Shown here: positions 17,301-48,919 of the stretch, piece by piece | Position numbering within the stretch: the first letter of the stretch is position 1 | Layout of the letters: each line of letters opens with the position of its first letter | From: Anolis carolinensis | Taxonomy: Eukaryota | Length of the DNA: 64,000 nt | Direction of reading: 5' to 3' | Assembly (NCBI RefSeq): GCF_035594765.1 | Contig: NC_085844.1 | Location: 226,316,107-226,380,106 of the forward strand | Position numbers and translations under genes: made by a program | The notes under the pieces: generated by a model | The model's input: only the letters and a program-made list of their open reading frames with translations | Database searches by the model: none | What the model was told of the DNA's origin: nothing

Positions 17301-18450
17301 AATCGTGTACTATCACCACCTATTTGCGGTACCTTGAACAGTCAAGATTTCACAGAACCCTTCAAGTCCACCTTCCTGCTCTCGCAGGATAGTGACTGTT
17401 GTTTCTGTTGTTTTGCCTCATATCTGCTTATCAAAAGAAAAGCTTGGAATTAATTGCATAGCTCCATACATGTGGTTCCTGATAGTTTTCCTCTGTGTGT
17501 CCAAATGCCTGCACCCTATATTTGTTATCTTCTCTAGAGGCTTACCTGTGAGTTGCCCTTTAGGAGGGTCTGTTGCACTTTACTCAAAAAGGCTTGGTCC
17601 TCCCTTATAATTGGTTTAGTTATGCAGGCTGAATCTACACTACTTCATATTTATGCCCACCAAAATCAGTGGGAAGAATAGAGACTGGATCCGACGCTGA
17701 CTTCAAAAGAAACTAAAGCAAATTAGAACAACAAAACCTAAAGATAAAAGTAGCAGCAGCATAAAACAGAAAACAAAGCAGCCAGTGAAAGCATTATCTA
17801 TTGGATTTAAAGGGTTTTTTTCCAGTTCTCAAAGTGCTTGAATTGCTTACTTTGATCATGCTTCACTCTCATTGAAATCATGCCACCCTATTCTACTCCA
17901 GCCTGCGATTGTTTCAATAACATTCTGATAAGGATTTGTGCATACAAAGCCTGAAATTGTGTTCCATGTTTATATATCTTGATTGTACGTTATACAGATT
18001 GTATCGTGGTTAGCATGTATAGATTTTTGTGTACACAAATTCCAAATTAAATGTGCAGATGTTAGTCTGATAGCACGAGTGCCTATTATATTTGCAATTG
18101 GCCTGTACATTTCCATATGCCAGCTAATCTTTGGAAACACACTGGGATTGGGTACTCTATATATTTATGTATAATTCAATAAATGTTATTCAAAACATCA
18201 CCAACCCCTATAGTCTTTCTATTTCTGGCCTTTTCAAATTCTTGTACAGGAAAATGATGGTGGCAGCCAGTAATAGGTGGCTCCCTAAGGTGACCGTAAC
18301 ACCTGTAATAAGCGACCCATATCAGTATAAAGTTTTTTAAATCAAATTTGTTACTTAGATGCTATCCCTTTTTCATGACTCATGGTATAAATATTCATCT
18401 GCAGTTTTGTTTGGGTTGAACTAGTAACTTTTTGCGTTTTCATCCTCTAG

Positions 18451-19120
18451 GTGTTTGAGGAAACCCGTAAGAGGAGCAGTGAGAACACAACGTCGCCGGA
18501 GGTCAAAGTCTCCAGTACTCCACCCTCCCAAGTTCATCCACCGCACTATTAAATTGCCAACACATAACCAACCCCTGCCCAAGAATGCAGTGGACACTTC
18601 TGATCACAGCTGTGACCTGAGTGAGCCAAACTCAGACGAATTATCCAAGAACAAACAGGCCAGTTGTACTCTCAACAATGTTGAGAAGCTGCAAACAGCA
18701 GCCAAACATTCTGGGGTTTCCATGGCTACAGTGCAGCAGAACACACCTGAAAGCAGCCCAACAGCCATTCTAAAAGCTACAGATCCTTCTGATTTCCATT
18801 CTGTGTCTGAGCAAAATAAAGGGAGTCTGTGTGCATGTGTAGACAAGACTTGCCAGTGTACGCAGTGGCAAGACATGAGAGTGTATATGTTTTCTGGCCT
18901 GCAAAATGCTCTTCAATCTGTACCTGAAAAAGCAACACACATGCAGGACAATTCCAAGCCTTTGCCATCAAGAACTCCCTCCTGCTCTCTGAGATCTTGC
19001 TCTGAGCAAGCCAGGGCTCATGTGGATGATGTGACTATTGAAGACCTTTCGGGGTATATGGAATATTTCCTGCATATCCCTAAAAAAATGTCCCACATGG
19101 CAGAAATGATGTACACCTGA
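18451..19120 (+). CDS. OSER1: OSER1 last coding exon
   Basis: Acceptor catcctctag; RGAVRTQRRRRSKSPVLHPPKFIH and DDVTIEDLSGYMEYFLHIPKKMSHMAEMMYT* are OSER1 hallmarks; spliced CDS is 843 nt (280 aa). Confidence 0.96.
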
Positions 19121-28577: not shown

Positions 28578-29126
<549 letters not shown>

Positions 29127-33500: not shown

Positions 33501-34481
33501 AAAACTGTAATTTCTTTCAAAGTTTATCTGAGCTGCATCCTGTGGATACCTAGGATTTGTAATCTGCTGAGCAACTAAGTCCTTTTTGGCAGATTCAACA
33601 AAAGGTAAAGCCTAATAGAATTCCATAGGATGCAGCAATCATAGTTAAAGTGGTATAAAAGTGCTATAATTGTGCAGTGTGAAAGAGATCTGTGTTTAAG
33701 TTGTGTTTCAGTTTCTAGAAATGCAGTGCTTTGTTCTGTAAAATAAAGGCTGAAATACCTACTTCTCAGGACAACAATTTTCAGATTATAGATTAGACAT
33801 AAAAAATCTATGACACACCAGAATTTGTTGAACTACAGAACTGCTCAGATAGCATGGCTTGTGCTCAGAGATTATGGGAGTGGTAAAGCAACAACCTCTA
33901 GAGGGGCAGTGTCCCCTTCCACCTGTAAATAATGGGTTGTTTCTAAACTGAATAAGAAAGGTTCTCAGTTCAATTTACACCATTTCCAGTAGAGCTATGA
34001 AAATTCGAAACATGCCTCATACCCTGAAGGTACTAAACTGGTTTGACTCAGTAGAGGAAGTGTGGCTTCTTTCCTGTTCCCTAATTAAATCATCTTCCTC
34101 TCTGTGGATGTTTCCTGACATCAAGAGCCCTTGGGATTACGCATTTGCCATCCCTTCTGTTGTTTCTTTCTGTGTTTCACCTTTCACTCCCATTGCCCCC
34201 TCTCTTGCCTCCCTCCCACATTCTGGGTTGCGTCTCTAAGATAATTGATCCACTTGGGAATTTCCTAATGACAAAATGATTCATTAAGTTGATAGTTAAA
34301 TATTTCACTTCTGGGGATCTCTGCTTCTATTCTGACTCAGTTCTCATGGGAATGACATTTTGTTTCAGATGAAAATGTTGTAGTTCATCTAATGGAGAGC
34401 TTTCACTCTTGCTAAAGACACTTGCAGTTGGGAATCATTTCATGTCTTTGGATGGAAGAGAATTTTACAGTGATGGATTAA

Positions 34482-34784
34482 TGTCAGAACCCTGCTACTA
34501 GAGCCTGGATGTGGCTCTGAGTTTCAGGGTCACTGACATTGATAAGACACCTGCGGCTCAGGACTCGGAGAAGAAACGGCTGCTGGACTTGGCGGGGAAT
34601 TTGCGCGGGGTTTTACTGAGCGGGAAGAGACTTTTCAAATGAGGGGGAGGGTATATAAAGGATGGTTGGCCGGAGCCTCCCATTCTTGGCTTTTTTGATG
34701 TTCATGTTTCCTACAGTAAAAGTTTCTGGTGATATCACAGAGAGTCTCGTGTGTTCATTCAGGAGCGGCTGTGGTGAGCTGACA
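34482..34784 (+). repeat. 5' LTR
   Basis: TATA tatataaa (34652-34659), Inr-like ccAttc at 34682, AGTAAA (34715-34720); no differences from the 3' LTR found by eye. Confidence 0.97.
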
Positions 34785-34786
34785 CT

Positions 34787-34797
34787 AAGCCAAGAAT
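34787..34797 (+). promoter_or_regulatory. Self-priming primer binding site
   Basis: aagccaagaat is the exact reverse complement of attcttggctt (34682-34692), the predicted first 11 nt of the transcript; no TGG tRNA-type PBS is present. Confidence 0.85.
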
Positions 34798-34832
34798 ACG
34801 GACACCATCCCGCTGTAGCGGTGAGGTGTAAC

Positions 34833-37800
34833 ATGCAAGTGGAGGATGAAGAGCTCTTGGGCGCAGGAGGAGGAAGGTCAGAAAGGGCCACTCCCGAGCC
34901 GGACGCTGAGTTCCACCAGCTGGCGGCCCTGGCGTCATCCACCGCTTATGCCCAGCCAAATGGGGTAACCCAGAGGCGTGGAGTGGTGCGGGGAGACAGC
35001 ACCGGAGGAGAGGAAGGTTCACCTTCCCCAGGCCCACAGAGGATGGTGTTTCTGGAGGAGAGGATGTCGGCGATGGAGACCACCCTGGCAGTGATGTCGA
35101 GGGCGATGGAGCGCCTGGCGTTTTTGGCGGAGCCAGAGAGAGGAAGGGAACTTCGGGCTGGCTCAATGTGGGACGTGAGCGTGGGAAGCAGCCAGGGCTT
35201 TGCAGACCTCCCAGCACCGAAGGGAAGGGAAATGCGAAAGGAGCCCGGCGCCCGGCCCAAGACCCAAACAAGCCTGACGCGGGTGGAGGAGAGTGACGAC
35301 GAAGGGGAAAAACCTCCGAGAATCCCAGCTACGCTCCCAGCTGAGACCCTGGTGCCCCTGGCGAATGCCGGGCGTGGCACAGGGCCAAGAGAAGCAGCAG
35401 CGGGGCCCACTGGTCCGCAAGGGGGCTTGCGACGGGCGGAGAATTGGGGATTGCCACCACAGGGACCCCTACCAAGACGAGAGGAACTAAGGATCGAGTT
35501 TGGGGGAGAGTCCTCTGAACTGGATTTTTTCCTGACCACGGTGAGGGGCTATATGGAGGACAATGCTCATACTTTTAGAACGGAATCCAGCCGGATACGG
35601 GCCATTGGTGCAGTGTTGAAGAGGGGAGCGGCCAGCTGGTACGTTCAGCTGCACGCGCGGCGCGACCCATGTCTGGGGTCACTCCGACGCTTTATGGGGG
35701 CCCTGGAGACCCGTTTCCGAGATCCACTGGAGCAGATCCGGGCGAGGGAGAAGTTGAAGACCGTCTCCCAGGGGCAGAGGTCGGTATCTGAGTATGCGGA
35801 GGAGTTCCAATGCCTCGCCGAAAAGGTGCCGGAATGGTCTGCAGTAACAAAGATAGAACTCTTCAAAGAGGGTCTCAGGCGGGAGATCCTCTCCTGGGCG
35901 GTGCATCGTGATGAGCCTGACACACTGCGCGGATGGATTCAGCTGGCGGGGCGCGTCGAGACATCGCTGGCCCAGGCGAGGAGGCACCGAGGAGGGCTAC
36001 AGCAGCGGCCGCAGATGAAAGAGGGGAGCCGGAAGGAGGGATCAACCCCAGCCGGGAGGAGAACGGAGCCGACAGGGAACGTGAGCGCCAGCAGGAGTGG
36101 CTGCTTTGTGTGCGGCCGGTTGGGCCACAGGGCTGCCGAGTGCTGGCAGAGAAAAGGGGAAGGCGGAGGCCCGCCCAAACCAAGAGCCGTGGCAGGGAAA
36201 CGCGCCGAGGAAGAACCACCGATGAGGCACCACTCGGGGGGGTTGGTAAGTCAGGACAAAGCTATGATAGTGGTCCCCATTCAGCTTGAAAATGGCAGCA
36301 AACAAGCAACCTGCAAAGCATTTGTGGATTGTGGATGTTCCAGGAACATCATCTCCCCTGAATTAGCCGAGGGATTGGGATGCGAAAGAACGAACCTAGA
36401 ATCCCCAATAGCTTTTTCGCAGTTGGACGGATCCACAGCATCGGGATCGTTAGCTAAGTACAGTGCCGAAGATGTAAAGTGTAAGATAGGGAGTTGGGAA
36501 GGAAAGGTGTCATTTGTGATATCACAAATAGCCAGCTATAATGTTATACTAGGCATGCCGTGGCTGGGGCAGGCCAACCCGCAAATCAACTGGGAGGATA
36601 AGAGCATGATCTTCAGGATGAATTTGGAGGAAGGGGAGAGGGAGCCAGGGAAAAGGGGGGAGGAAGACTCTATCAGAATAGCAGAACTGGCAGATAAATT
36701 ACCCCCAGAGTATCGGGATTTTGTGGACGTGTTTGATGAGAAGGAAGCAGACAATTTCCCACCGAAGCGGAGAGTTGAAGTGAAAATAGAGCTAGTCCCA
36801 GGAGCAGAGCTTCCCAAGGCAAAAATATACCCGATGTCAGCTAGGGAAAAGGAGGAACTGAGAAAATACATTGATAAAAACCTAGCGAGGGGTTTCCTAG
36901 AGCCTTCAAATTCCCCTTTAGGGGCGCCTGTGTTGTTCAGGCGGAAAAAGGACCAAACGCTGAGGCTCTGCATTGACTACAGGGGCCTAAATGCAATCAG
37001 TACTGTAAATAAATACCCCCTACCCTTAGTGAAGGACTTGATCGCCCAGTTATCGGAAGGACAGATATTCACTAAATTGGACTTAATTGAGGCCTACCAT
37101 AAATTGCAGATCAAACCAGAGGACAGGTGGAAGACGGCCTTCTCCTGCGCATTCGGATTATTCAATTATCGTGTGCTCCCCTTCGGTTTGTGCGGGGGAG
37201 GGGCCGCGTTCATGCAATTAATCAACGAAGTATTGCATCCATTGTTGTACAAGGGAGTCTTTATTTTTTTAGATGACATATTGATAATGTCTCGGACTAA
37301 GGAGCAACATGTAGAACTAGTCAGGGAAGTCCTACAAAAGTTGAGGGAAGCGAAACTGTATGCGAAGCTTGCCAAGTGCGAGTTCAATAAAGACCAGATA
37401 GACTTTCTGGGGTATAGGATTTCCTCCCAGGGAGTGGCGATGGACCCTGCGAAGGTGGAAGACGTGAGGGGGTGGGAAGCCCCCAAAACACGGAAGCAGC
37501 TGCAATCCTTCCTAGGGTTCGCAAACTTCTATAGAACATTTATCAAGGACTTTGCGCGCCTCACTTTGCCATTAACGGATTTGTTAAAAACTAAAGGCAG
37601 GGGAGAAACAGCCAAAGTGAAGGCCCCAGGGGCCAAACTGACATGGACAATAGAATGCCAGGAAGCTTTCGAAGCCCTTAAAAAGCGTTTTACTGAGGAA
37701 CCTGTCCTACAGCACCCTGATATGTCTAAGGCCTTTGTATTACATTGCGATGCGTCAGACCGGGCATATGGGGCAGTTCTGCTGCAGAAAGACGAGGGGG

Positions 37801-39437
37801 GGAACCTGAAGCCATGTGGCTATCTGTCAAAAAAGTTTAGCGATACAGAAAAAAACTGGCCGATTTGGGAGAGAGAAGCCTTAGCGATTCTAAAAGCACT
37901 AGAGTGCTGGAGACACTTTCTGGAAGGAAGTGGAACACCGTTTGAGGTGTGGACTGATCATAGAAATTTACAGTATCTAAGATCCCCTCGTAAACTATCA
38001 GCGAAGCAAATTAGATGGGCCCAATATTTCAGCCGTTTTGATTTCAGACTCAGATTCTTCCAGGGGAAACATAACATACTCGCTGACGCTCTCTCTCGGA
38101 TGCCTCAGCACGGGGGAGGAATTCAGGAATCTGAAGGGAGCCTGTTCCTAGATAAGCAATGGGGCCTGGCAGTACTAACTCGAGCACAAGCGGCCAAAGA
38201 AAACAAACGTACTGCCATTTCCACGGGGGGAGGAGAAATATGGGAGGAAGAGTTGAAACGAGCGTATGGAATGGACAAATGGTTACAAACTAACAAAGAA
38301 AAGGGAGAATTGTGTGGGGATTTGGTGTTTGTAAATAAGAAATTGTATATTCCTGAATGTTTAAGACGAGAAATGTTAAGGAAGTGCCACGATAACAAGG
38401 GTGCGGGTCATCTAGGCCCCACCAGGACTATTAAACTGTTGGCCAAACAATGCTGGTGGCCCGGAATGAGGAAAGACGCCAGGGGGTACGTCACGCAGTG
38501 TGAATTATGTGCAGAGGGAAAAACACCACCGGGGAAGCCCCAGGGGCTATTGCAGAAGGTGGTGGAGCCCATGAGGCCATGGGAATGCGTGGCCATGGAT
38601 TTTGTAGGCGAACTACCCCCCAGCAGAGGCCACAGATACATTTGGACAATATTGGACCTATTCTCAAAACAGGCACACTTTGTGGCCCTGCCAAAACTCC
38701 CCTCAGCTGAAAAACTTGCTGATTTGTATGTGAAGCATGTATATCGCCTACATGGGTGTCCCGACAAAATAATTAGCGACCGGGGAGTCCAATTTACTGC
38801 AAAATTTTGGGGAAAATTCTTACAGCTGTTAGGAGCAGAAAGGAACCTGAGCTCGGCTTTTCATCCCGCAACCAACGGGGGAGTCGAACGCACCCAACAA
38901 ACACTGTGCCAATTCTTGAGGATGTACACCAATTATAGACAGGATGATTGGGCGGACCTTCTTCCGTTTGCTGAGATGGCTTTTAACGGGGCCGTACATT
39001 CGGCCACAGGTCGTGCCCCATTCGAAATAGTATACGGACAGGAGGTGGCACCTTTCCCCAGGCTACCCGAGTGGAAGGAAGGAGAGGGCCAGACCGACAA
39101 GGAATGGCCGGCCAAAATTAAGCAAGGGTGGCAGAACGTGGTGGAGGCATTGCGGGAAACACAAAAGAAGTACAAGCTCTTTGCAGATCGCAGGCGCCGA
39201 GAGGGGGACAAATTGGGCGAAGGGGATCTGGTTTGGCTGAGCACAAAAAACCTGAAATTGGGGTTCCCATCTAAAAAATTGGCTCCACGCTATATAGGGC
39301 CGTTCAGGGTAGCAAAAAGAATAAACGAAGTGACCTATGAGCTGAGGCTACCCAAGGACCTAGGAAAGGTACACCCGGTATTCCATTGCAGCCTGTTAAA
39401 AAAGTATAAAGGAACTCTGGACAGCGGAGAACAATAG
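34833..39437 (+). CDS. Gag-Pol polyprotein (1534 aa): capsid, CCHC knuckle, protease, RT, RNase H, integrase
   Basis: First in-frame ATG after the PBS; CFVCGRLGHRAAEC; FVDCGC; LPFGL and FLDD; CDAS...TDH; H-x6-H...CELC; MDF/SDRG/VER; YIGPF and HPVFH. The domain order RT-RH-IN is the Gypsy order. Confidence 0.95.
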   Translation: MQVEDEELLGAGGGRSERATPEPDAEFHQLAALASSTAYAQPNGVTQRRGVVRGDSTGGEEGSPSPGPQRMVFLEERMSAMETTLAVMSRAMERLAFLAEPERGRELRAGSMWDVSVGSSQGFADLPAPKGREMRKEPGARPKTQTSLTRVEESDDEGEKPPRIPATLPAETLVPLANAGRGTGPREAAAGPTGPQGGLRRAENWGLPPQGPLPRREELRIEFGGESSELDFFLTTVRGYMEDNAHTFRTESSRIRAIGAVLKRGAASWYVQLHARRDPCLGSLRRFMGALETRFRDPLEQIRAREKLKTVSQGQRSVSEYAEEFQCLAEKVPEWSAVTKIELFKEGLRREILSWAVHRDEPDTLRGWIQLAGRVETSLAQARRHRGGLQQRPQMKEGSRKEGSTPAGRRTEPTGNVSASRSGCFVCGRLGHRAAECWQRKGEGGGPPKPRAVAGKRAEEEPPMRHHSGGLVSQDKAMIVVPIQLENGSKQATCKAFVDCGCSRNIISPELAEGLGCERTNLESPIAFSQLDGSTASGSLAKYSAEDVKCKIGSWEGKVSFVISQIASYNVILGMPWLGQANPQINWEDKSMIFRMNLEEGEREPGKRGEEDSIRIAELADKLPPEYRDFVDVFDEKEADNFPPKRRVEVKIELVPGAELPKAKIYPMSAREKEELRKYIDKNLARGFLEPSNSPLGAPVLFRRKKDQTLRLCIDYRGLNAISTVNKYPLPLVKDLIAQLSEGQIFTKLDLIEAYHKLQIKPEDRWKTAFSCAFGLFNYRVLPFGLCGGGAAFMQLINEVLHPLLYKGVFIFLDDILIMSRTKEQHVELVREVLQKLREAKLYAKLAKCEFNKDQIDFLGYRISSQGVAMDPAKVEDVRGWEAPKTRKQLQSFLGFANFYRTFIKDFARLTLPLTDLLKTKGRGETAKVKAPGAKLTWTIECQEAFEALKKRFTEEPVLQHPDMSKAFVLHCDASDRAYGAVLLQKDEGGNLKPCGYLSKKFSDTEKNWPIWEREALAILKALECWRHFLEGSGTPFEVWTDHRNLQYLRSPRKLSAKQIRWAQYFSRFDFRLRFFQGKHNILADALSRMPQHGGGIQESEGSLFLDKQWGLAVLTRAQAAKENKRTAISTGGGEIWEEELKRAYGMDKWLQTNKEKGELCGDLVFVNKKLYIPECLRREMLRKCHDNKGAGHLGPTRTIKLLAKQCWWPGMRKDARGYVTQCELCAEGKTPPGKPQGLLQKVVEPMRPWECVAMDFVGELPPSRGHRYIWTILDLFSKQAHFVALPKLPSAEKLADLYVKHVYRLHGCPDKIISDRGVQFTAKFWGKFLQLLGAERNLSSAFHPATNGGVERTQQTLCQFLRMYTNYRQDDWADLLPFAEMAFNGAVHSATGRAPFEIVYGQEVAPFPRLPEWKEGEGQTDKEWPAKIKQGWQNVVEALRETQKKYKLFADRRRREGDKLGEGDLVWLSTKNLKLGFPSKKLAPRYIGPFRVAKRINEVTYELRLPKDLGKVHPVFHCSLLKKYKGTLDSGEQ

Positions 39438-39461
39438 TTGTGTTTAATCTTTTCCTTCCAG

Positions 39462-39503
39462 GACGAAGGGGAGGAGGACGCCATGTCAGAACCCTGCTAC
39501 TAG
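39462..39503 (+). CDS. Predicted terminal exon of spliced Gag (DEGEEDAMSEPCY*)
   Basis: Acceptor tttaatcttttccttccag ending 24 nt after the pol stop; joins in phase 0 to the donor TTG|gtaagt at 36245/36246. Confidence 0.6.
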   Translation, partial: DEGEEDAMSEPCY

Positions 39504-39786
39504 AGCCTGGATGTGGCTCTGAGTTTCAGGGTCACTGACATTGATAAGACACCTGCGGCTCAGGACTCGGAGAAGAAACGGCTGCTGGACTTGGCGGGGA
39601 ATTTGCGCGGGGTTTTACTGAGCGGGAAGAGACTTTTCAAATGAGGGGGAGGGTATATAAAGGATGGTTGGCCGGAGCCTCCCATTCTTGGCTTTTTTGA
39701 TGTTCATGTTTCCTACAGTAAAAGTTTCTGGTGATATCACAGAGAGTCTCGTGTGTTCATTCAGGAGCGGCTGTGGTGAGCTGACA
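39484..39786 (+). repeat. 3' LTR
   Basis: Direct repeat of 34482-34784. Confidence 0.97.
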
Positions 39787-41231
39787 GATTAATATTGCTA
39801 CAGACCGTGGCTGAGAAACTTTTTTTCACCTAACAAGAATCAAAGTATGAAATATTTTTAATACTTGTTCATGCCTGCAAACATGTTTAAATCACTTTAA
39901 ATCTTTTAACTATACAATTATCCAATCTTAAATGTATTCATTGCAAAGTAATCTACATGCACAGACATCAGCTTATCCCTAACCCCCAATAGTTTCTCTC
40001 TTGTTTAGAACTCCAGGCAGCCTGGAGCATGAATTTCGAAGTGGTATTTGGCCAGGTGTACAGCTTGGGATATGAAGACGTTTCCTCCATAAGAAATTTT
40101 TACTTCAACCTGTAAACTTCAAATGGTTTTTACTTCAACCATTGCAATGGTTTAACATTTTGGGCAAAAACTTTGTACACCAGACTTCAAATCACCACTT
40201 GGCCATGAAAATCCACAGGGTGACCTTGGGCAAATCACACTCTTTCTGTCTCATAGGAAAGTGTGGAGAACCCGTCGCCCCACATTGCCCCACTTACTGT
40301 TGGCCTCATCCCATGGGGGGAAGTGTCCATCGCCTGGCTTCCCCCCACTGTTGCAAAGGCAACACGGGAAACCTTCCGTGTCGCCACAGCGACGGTGTAT
40401 GCCGCTTGCCCTCCCCTTTTGCCACAGAGCCCCAACAGAAGTAGATATATGTCATGTAATGGGCTCCATGGTAAAAGAGGAGAGCAAGCAGCTTACAGCG
40501 GGCACATTAGCTCGTATGATGAGGTCATATGATTCTAGACTAAAATCCCTGTTGGGTGACCTTGGATCATTCAATTACTCTCAGCCCCTGAAAACCCTGT
40601 GATAGGTTTGCCTTAGGGTTCCCATTAGATAGAAGTGACTTAGAGGCACATAACAACAGCAAATATGAATAAGATCACAGCCTTAACTTGACAAACAGTC
40701 CTAAATGAGAGTTCTTTAGCCCAATTTAGAACTATGGGAAAGTTGCAAGAGTGTTTCCTTTCCCTTCCCATCCTTCTTAAATTTCTCTATGTAATCTCCT
40801 GACTCCTCCAACCCTAACCTCGCTTCAGAAAACAATAACTTGTTTAAGGCTCAAGCAGGCCAGTTGTCTCCTTCTGCCAATTTCCTTCTTTTAAAAAATC
40901 CAGCCCAGACCTTCAGCATTCTATAAGTTCAGTGAGCTTCTTATTCCAAAATACCTGTCAAATCATTGGAGCTTTTTAAAGAAAAATCTTCAATTTACGA
41001 ACAAATATATTTTTGATCTTATTTAAATCTCTTATCCTACAAGTCCTTTACACAACAGTTATAATGACTTATTTCTCTATAACTTAACCAGATAACTGCT
41101 TTGAAAAGAGAGAAAAATTGTGAGGAAGTTTTTTTTCTCCTACATGTTCTACTTTGTGCAAATGTTAAAGATTATTACAAAAATCACTATAAAAAGCTGA
41201 TTTAACCCAGTGTTCCATTCAGGCTAAGATT

Positions 41232-47469: not shown

Positions 47470-47638
47470 CATTAGAAGACCTAGAGAGACCCACAAACGT
47501 TTCAGGGATGAAGTAATACTTTTGCAGTGTGGATAAAAGCAGCCATGAACATCAAATTAATGGATAAAGGTGTCGTACTATACATTATCATTGAAGACAA
47601 TGCCATGGATGTAACTTACTTCTTATTTTTGATTCTAG

Positions 47639-48422
47639 GTACTTACCAAGGTCAGTTCACCAATGGCATGCGGCATGGTTATGGCGTCCGCCAGAGTGTC
47701 CCATATGGCATTGCAGCTGTTGTGCGCAACCCTCTAAGGACCTCCCTCACCTCTCTCCGTAGTGAGCACAGCAACGGCACCCTGCTGCAACATGACTCCC
47801 CAACTGCCAACCTGGAAAATCTTCCCATGACACCGACTATCACACGGGGAGGCTTTGCGCTCAGCTTGTACGCAGATGCAGATGCTGCCAAACTGAAGAA
47901 GGGAGGGCTCTTCCGTCGGAGCTCCTTGTTTGGGAAGCTGAAGAAAGCTGACTCCAAGACTTCCTTGACCAGCCAGAGGAGTCGGCTCAGCTTCCTCAAG
48001 AGCGAGAGTGGCATGAGCTCCACTGGTAGTGATGCTACTTCTACTGCCAGCCTGGGAGAAGGAGCAGAGGGAGAGGACTTTGCACCATTTGATGCCGATA
48101 TTGATGCCACCACCACAGAGTCCTACATGGGCGAGTGGAAGAATGACAAGCGCTCGGGGTTTGGTGTTAGCGAGCGGTCGAGTGGGCTGAAGTATGAGGG
48201 CGAATGGCTGGATAACGTACGGCATGGATATGGTTGCACCACGTTGCCTGATGGTAAGAAGGAAGAAGGGAAATACCGAATGAATGTCCTGATCAAAGGC
48301 ATGAAGAAGCGGGTGATACCTCTGAAAAGTGCCAAGATAAGGCAGAAAGTGGACCGGAGCGTGGAAGGGGCTCAGAGGGCAGCAGCCATTGCCAGACAGA
48401 AATCTGAAATTGCAGCTTCTAG
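47639..48422 (+). CDS. JPH2: Junctophilin-2 coding exon 2
   Basis: Acceptor tttttgattctag; phase 1 joins exon 1 (G|GT); [23 protein letters not shown]...[14 protein letters not shown]...[13 protein letters not shown]; donor AG|gtaagg; 784 nt. Confidence 0.96.
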
Positions 48423-48919
48423 GTAAGGAGATTGTTGCTTACAGTGTGACTGTGAAGAAGAAACCACTATTCCATATTTCATATTTAAATGAATCAGTGT
48501 TTTGAATGATAAGATTGAAGTATGCATATGCATACAGCTTTGAAGTAACAGGCCACAAATAACATTACATTTTATCAAGTTGCAAGTACACAGGATAAAA
48601 TAAAACCAATATTAAAAAGTAATTTTAGGGATAGGCATGCCATTATCTGTGAGTAATGTTTTCTGATTATTTTCAAAATGTTGTTTTAAATGACATTTTT
48701 AGAGGCATTTGTACTGGTTGTCTCAACCTTTATGCTATTTTCTTATCAATCACAATGTGTCTTTTTTAACTGTAGCAGCTAGTAACAATCTGGGCAATGC
48801 ATAAATCAATGTCTTTGTTTTTAGGTTCTACACCTGAGGATGACAGATAGCATTTTAAACACAGTAACAGGCAATGGGACCATTTTAAGTTCAAGCTCTG
48901 GGCAAGAGTCACATAAAAA

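Follow-up and report, generated by a model that had tools for sequence, protein, structure and literature searches.

How is reverse transcription primed in an LTR retrotransposon whose primer-binding site (PBS) lacks TGG? The question is raised by a locus of Anolis carolinensis within a 64,000-nucleotide stretch of DNA, which is called the window here. The original prediction was that the PBS pairs with the first 11 nt of the element's own RNA, as in Tf1 of Schizosaccharomyces pombe. This reading is supported by covariation within and across families and by the finding of no better match among 57 tRNA genes, and on these analyses we put the probability of a Tf1-type self-priming mechanism at about 0.85.

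The element, its family and its setting

The element is a Ty3/gypsy LTR retrotransposon that spans positions 34482-39786 of the forward strand, with the primer region at its front (Table 1). The Pfam domain order of its ORF, PR-RT-RH-IN, is of the Ty3/gypsy type, and the best relative of solved structure is the RT of Ty3. A Pfam search of the 1534-residue ORF found no chromodomain (PF00385), which relatives carry, and there was no match to an envelope domain in the same ORF. The closest database proteins are from A. carolinensis itself and are up to 99-100% identical. About 700 close copies exist in the genome, and the PBS and leader of the element are found at 746 genomic places. The 20 sister copies that match most closely over the first 419 bases include 16 with identical LTRs, 16 with a 6-bp target duplication and 14 with a single gag-pol ORF open over 1595-1596 codons. 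The family is young and the element is very probably functional. At window positions ∼36628-36635, in the protease-RT interval, the element is 12 nt shorter than its sisters, and the difference is in frame.

Target duplications of 6 bp also predominate in a sister family of 73% RT-integrase identity (11 of 14 copies; L209-L223), and three more distant anole families have 5-bp duplications in 17 of 19 cases. Among plant elements, 6-bp duplications make up 0.4%. The shift from 5 to 6 bp between sister families is a natural experiment in which integrases can be compared.

Two MORN-repeat coding stretches of the forward strand (28578-29126 and 47512-48423) flank the element, which has the same orientation as they do, and a DUF776 gene is nearby (18428-19117). 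The site is probably intronic, within a junctophilin gene that neighbours OSER1. The predicted splice acceptor of the element (see below) could truncate the transcript of the surrounding MORN-repeat gene.

Table 1. Coordinates of the element's features in the window.
Feature	Position	Strand	Basis or remark
Left target-site duplication, 6 bp	34476..34481	+	Same 6 bases at both element ends
5' LTR, 303 bp, TG...CA	34482..34784	+	Identical to 3' LTR
TATA box	34652..34659	+	Sequence; TATA-like word 30-31 nt before primer in other families too
Predicted self-primer, predicted first 11 nt of RNA	34682..34692	+	PBS complement, covaries; RNA start predicted
R stretch able to pair with LTR end, possible second duplex	34698..34704	+	Predicted fold
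AGTAAA, possible polyadenylation signal	34715..34720	+	Letters only; putative function
U5 stretch, possible third duplex with leader	34764..34776	+	Drawable; not above shuffles in this family
Primer-binding site, no TGG	34787..34797	+	Starts 2 nt behind terminal CA of LTR
Indel hot spot directly behind PBS, predicted strand-transfer junction	34798..34802	+	Length variation among copies
Leader hairpin, rival of U5:leader duplex	34802..34829	+	94.8% of cells paired, no two-sided change
Single gag-pol ORF, 1534 aa: capsid, zinc knuckle, protease, RT, RNase H, integrase, SH3	34833..39437	+	
Predicted splice donor at zinc knuckle-protease border, phase 0, GT at 36246	36243..36251	+	Only GTRAGT in element; kept in sister families
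Predicted intron, 3216 nt, all of pol	36246..39461	+	GT..AG joint in one contig of run X14
Polypyrimidine tract and predicted CAG acceptor directly behind pol stop codon	39438..39461	+	Sequence
Predicted second exon: 13 mostly acidic residues, stop inside 3' LTR	39462..39503	+	Translated in phase 0
Polypurine tract	39465-39478	+	Overlapped by predicted second exon
3' LTR, 303 bp	39484..39786	+	Identical to 5' LTR
Right target-site duplication, 6 bp	39787..39792	+	Matches left copy

A PBS complementary to the element's own LTR

Three observations on which the original prediction was built proved correct. The PBS (34787-34797) and the LTR stretch 34682-34692 are perfect reverse complements over 11 nt; the complement begins 30 nt behind the start of the TATA box (34652-34659); and no TGG stands at the PBS position, the first one behind the LTR being at 34840, 56 nt past the LTR. 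The 11-nt duplex is flanked by mismatches at both sides, and each 11-mer is found only at its expected places. When the PBS was allowed to start 0-5 nt behind the LTR and the position of the primer was left free, 20 of 20,000 dinucleotide-shuffled LTRs contained an 11-nt complement anywhere. In the predicted fold of 34682-34840 the PBS duplex forms the closing stem (z=−3.95), and 0 of 200 shuffled sequences folded as well. From its distance of 30 nt to the TATA box, 34682 would be the transcription start.

Covariation of the PBS with the predicted RNA 5' end

A search for compensatory changes between the RNA 5' end and the PBS, which had been suggested together with the prediction, found them both within and across families. 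The PBS:LTR geometry recurs with other letters in four further anole families at 44-74% protein identity. From 40 loci taken for related families, 30 elements with resolved LTR pairs were used after removal of ten (four without RT, three without an LTR pair and three with unresolved ends); these belong to the element's own family or to one of three more, which have RT identities of 44-59%, and the letters differ from family to family. A self-complement of 10-13 nt stands at the expected place in 26 of the 30, usually 30-31 nt behind a TATA-like word, and of the other four, two also match when re-examined, a third has a mismatch and the last has a truncated LTR. In the 73% sister family, sampled at 15 loci of which one was unresolved, all 14 resolved copies have the self-complement. 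A cross table of the families shows that each PBS matches the LTR of its own family over 10-13 nt and the LTRs of other families over 3-8 nt.

Among seven aligned subfamily copies, two-sided changes occur at primer positions 2 and 6, with 97.4% of cells paired. The cross-family result carries more weight than this alignment because, as the covariation tool itself warns, related sequences can beat its shuffles. Two-sided changes were also seen at one position in a chromodomain-bearing family (L091/L094) and at two adjacent positions in one copy of the 73% sister family (L222). Older subfamilies (26 loci less two unrelated matches) retain a duplex of 12-14 nt in 17 of 24 copies, the duplex being broken in the other 7. 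At the level of single copies, four single-position searches yielded two young copies whose PBS carries a point mutation, and in neither did either LTR carry the matching change (0/2), a number too small to judge. A degenerate RT pattern search returned mostly matches to the element's own family. As read from the genome, covariation across five anole families strengthens the case for self-priming in vertebrates.

Length variation at the border of the PBS

The five nucleotides directly behind the PBS vary in length among copies. With 2-8 bases allowed at this place 746 copies match, and with exactly five 714 match, so that length differs in 32 of 746 copies. As a control, the 23 nt of leader that follow were examined in the same way; the count there was 0 of 714, since allowing 19-27 bases instead of 23 added no copies. 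All four indels among 100 listed copies fall in the first two bases behind the PBS. These border indels fit a process in which copying proceeds to the end of an 11-nt primer and is followed by strand transfer. They mark the edge of the PBS rather than the identity of the primer, as other primers would give them too; a common origin may lie behind some of the indel variants, and constraint may act on the control stretch.

Comparison with tRNAs and with BEL/Pao elements

A comparison of the PBS with tRNAs, also suggested at the outset, found nothing better than the self-match among 57 distinct tRNA genes of this genome, a sample that covers 30 anticodons and from which Glu, Trp and Tyr are missing. 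The best tRNA match is of 8 nt and lies inside the D-arm of tRNA-Thr(AGT). In L091, a match of 12 nt with G-U pairs to tRNA-Gly exceeds the 11-nt self-match.

BEL/Pao elements were tried as a tRNA-primed negative control and failed as such, as 8 of 8 lacked TGG and had self-complements of 9-14 nt. In these elements (L177-L184; two families, 8/8 copies) the complement is at offset 0, inside the element's own LTR, and no TATA box precedes it. On sequence grounds, this may be a signature of self-priming in elements that do not belong to Tf1/sushi.

Duplexes beside the PBS duplex

It had also been proposed that U5 (34764-34776) pairs imperfectly with the leader (34803-34814). Such a duplex can be drawn, with 11 pairs including G-U, but it is not above chance in the element's own family, where 99 of 300 shuffled sequences did as well. 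It beats shuffles only in the most distant family (1/300 in each of three copies). A duplex between R and the LTR end has 90.5% of cells paired and no two-sided change; 46 of 300 shuffles were as good in this copy, and it beats shuffles in L091, L094 and L211 (1-5 of 300). Thus both duplexes of a Tf1-type 'pretzel' can be drawn beside the PBS duplex, and neither exceeds shuffles in this copy. A local leader hairpin of −15.1 kcal/mol competes with the U5:leader duplex. At the tip of this hairpin (34810-34821) 12 nt form an almost perfect palindrome, which has no mismatch in several subfamily copies, and one may speculate that it is a dimerisation site.

A predicted splice that removes pol

The gag and pol regions share one frame, and surplus Gag is therefore likely to come from splicing. 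In the three single-ORF elements examined, the only GTRAGT of each lies in phase 0 where gag meets protease, and a polypyrimidine tract with CAG follows the pol stop codon. The acceptor, which the 73% sister family shares, lies outside the coding sequence. A −1 frameshift seems to be used by three other anole families, and none of these has the donor/acceptor pair; one of them has a GTGAGT nearby that is out of phase, with no acceptor at the polypurine tract. The predicted spliced product is a Gag of 484 residues with a short acidic tail that ends in the 3' LTR.

The splice was predicted before public sequencing runs were examined. One contig of run X14, whose type (RNA) is guessed, holds a GT..AG joint that skips exactly 36246-39461, with 26 letters on its short side. 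The joint was not listed in seven of the eight public runs, the deep run X15 included; rare forms are lost from contigs, and the types of the runs have been guessed. The donor GT is kept in 672 genomic copies, and none continues with another base. A spliced retrocopy in the DNA was considered as the source of the joint and gave 0 matches against 672 unspliced ones, a count limited to the exact 22-nt context. L032, a sister copy 3163 bp long, is no spliced form, since its internal deletion removes the donor.

At the protein level, Val-Ser occupies the place of the donor in 18 of 18 squamate-clade proteins. It lies 29 residues before the protease Asp in snake, gecko and one further relative (P0013, P0014, P0017, P0018, P0022, P0025, P0027, P0033, P0052 and P0068). 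Judged by position, 2 of 8 non-squamate proteins have Val-Ser there.

Three contigs of run X14 have long foreign sequence joined just before the acceptor, at window positions 39458-39460. These joins have the look of host exons from other loci that were spliced to the acceptor of the element. Hundreds of strong acceptors of this kind may capture host transcripts.

Placement among chromoviruses

In an RT-RNase H tree of 122 sequences (FastTree), picked by similarity to the query and including no named Tf1 or sushi-ichi, the element is nested among chromodomain-bearing squamate, fish and fungal proteins; supports are 0.87-1.0 at the main nodes, and several nodes are weak. As it lacks the chromodomain that its relatives carry, we file the element as a chromodomain-less offshoot of the chromovirus lineage and not as a typical chromovirus. 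A chromodomain is present at the integrase C-terminus in 94% of plant chromoviruses. According to the available parts of the respective papers, the LTR ends of the element fit the Sushi motif (PMC3601003), and full-length chromoviruses have been reported from Anolis (PMC3670739).

The literature, as far as its text was available, agrees with the statement of the original prediction that similar structures have been proposed for Tf1/sushi relatives: self-priming is described as a common Tf1/sushi feature in fungi and vertebrates (PMC6317226; bioRxiv 10.1101/2022.12.06.519325; PMC4600332). A self-priming signature in vertebrate Tf1/sushi chromoviruses (sushi-ichi, V-clade) was already proposed by Butler et al. 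(2001), as reported in the accessible portions of citing papers, which present self-priming as demonstrated for Tf1 and only implicated for its vertebrate relatives. Self-priming itself is thus not new, and the feature adds a further example to a type already proposed for vertebrates. The element differs in its single ORF, the lack of a chromodomain, the 6-bp duplication and the predicted pol-spanning donor/acceptor pair.

Proposed mechanism and its alternatives

In the mechanism that we propose, transcription would begin at 34682, 30 nt past the start of the TATA box, and the 5' end of the RNA would fold back on the PBS, the complementarity being observed and the pairing predicted. Cleavage behind base 11 by the RNase H of the element, a step taken from Tf1 as described in the available text of PMC7175516, would free the primer for extension by RT across the 2-nt spacer and U5. 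In plus-strand synthesis the primer would be copied as far as its 5' end. This would hold the PBS and the RNA start matched in sequence and would also produce indels just behind the PBS; such indels are observed, and this copying is their putative cause. Splicing out of 36246-39461 would give surplus Gag of a predicted 484 residues.

That the element primes itself in some form is very probable in our judgement. A different source of the primer, a host tRNA fragment or other small host RNA that binds the PBS while the LTR match is incidental, is very improbable, because a host RNA would not change along with each LTR, as the PBS does between families and subfamilies, always 30-31 nt behind a TATA-like word. 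The PBS also has no TGG to offer such a primer. What speaks for a host RNA is that half-tRNA priming exists in some Ty1/copia lineages (PMC6317226, in its available part), that the tRNA sample is incomplete, and that it contains the D-arm match to tRNA-Thr(AGT) and, for L091, the longer G-U-containing match to tRNA-Gly. Self-priming could also proceed without an RNase H cut of the folded full-length RNA, the primer being made as a short transcript, from a second RNA molecule or by a host nuclease. The flanking duplexes that Tf1 requires are weakly supported in the element, and neither of the two PBS-variant copies covaries with its own LTR, as if the primer came from another copy; two copies are, however, too few to count. 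The duplex length of 10-13 nt, the 2-nt spacer and the position fit the available description of Tf1, and the fold closes the duplex in cis (z=−3.95), which makes priming by such other routes improbable. The Tf1-type mechanism remains the reading that we prefer.

A functional Gag splice is probable. The splice sites could instead be incidental, with Val-Ser kept for the protease junction, the X14 joint derived from cryptic splicing or from a copy with a deletion, and the surplus of Gag regulated post-translationally, as it is in Tf1 or Ty5. The joint was found in one of eight runs only, the 18 of 18 squamate-clade proteins with Val-Ser could reflect protein constraint, and single-ORF elements can degrade Pol, according to the available parts of PMC7175516 and PMC5580714. 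Against this, the Val-Ser codons are always GTR-AGT; the acceptor, kept in the 73% sister family, lies in non-coding DNA; the joint falls exactly on the predicted GT..AG and is not listed in deep run X15; and among the genomic copies none has a different continuation after the donor. We therefore regard incidental splice sites as unlikely and retain splicing as the probable source of surplus Gag. No description of a pol-spanning splice in Ty3/gypsy was found in the literature searched, of which PMC5009743, in its available part, adds nothing on splicing.

With odds only a little better than even, we suggest that a squamate clade of self-primed Ty3/gypsy elements swapped the ancestral gag-pol frameshift for a copia-style splicing of pol into the polypurine tract, and that anoles also lost the chromodomain and moved to the 6-bp duplication. 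If so, the splice would extend to the whole clade, given the Val-Ser that snake and gecko relatives have at the donor site, and with its pol-spanning splice a Ty3/gypsy lineage would have arrived at the copia solution by convergence. With hundreds of near-identical young copies (714-746 with the leader), the natural RNA and cDNA ends should be measurable, and if the mechanism is correct, self-priming could be shown from them in a vertebrate.

Comparison with known systems

The closest known systems are Tf1 and Tf2 of S. pombe, together with Tj1 and Tosmo1-3. Like the anole element, they have an 11-nt PBS complementary to the predicted 5' end of the RNA and no tRNA match, and Tf1 and Tf2 also share its single gag-pol ORF (available parts of PMC7175516, PMC4600332 and bioRxiv 10.1101/2022.12.06.519325). 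As described there, Tf1 has a chromodomain and no Gag zinc knuckle, whereas the anole element has a zinc knuckle and no chromodomain; Tf1 lowers Pol after translation, whereas the anole element carries a predicted pol-spanning intron; and primer cleavage has been shown for Tf1 only. Tj1 makes 5-bp duplications, whereas those of the anole family are mostly 6 bp. Among vertebrate Tf1/sushi chromoviruses, chromodomain-bearing elements of squamates and fish are the tree neighbours of the element, and three chromodomain-bearing families in the anole genome share its primer geometry. Tf1/sushi elements outside fission yeast predominantly use a −1 frameshift in the accounts available, whereas the element and its 73% sister family have one ORF.

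For the predicted splice, the likeness is to Drosophila copia, which likewise has one ORF and in which removal of an intron of ∼3 kb that covers pol completely gives a Gag-only RNA, with a stop shortly behind the junction (PMC5580714). The shGAG RNA of plant Ty1/copia elements (EVD, BARE1) is a comparable spliced gag RNA. Copia, EVD and BARE1 are all Ty1/copia elements, and the same source, in the part available, reports no such conserved splicing in Arabidopsis Ty3/gypsy. Unlike in the copia type, the predicted acceptor of the anole element immediately precedes the polypurine tract, and translation would end in the 3' LTR.
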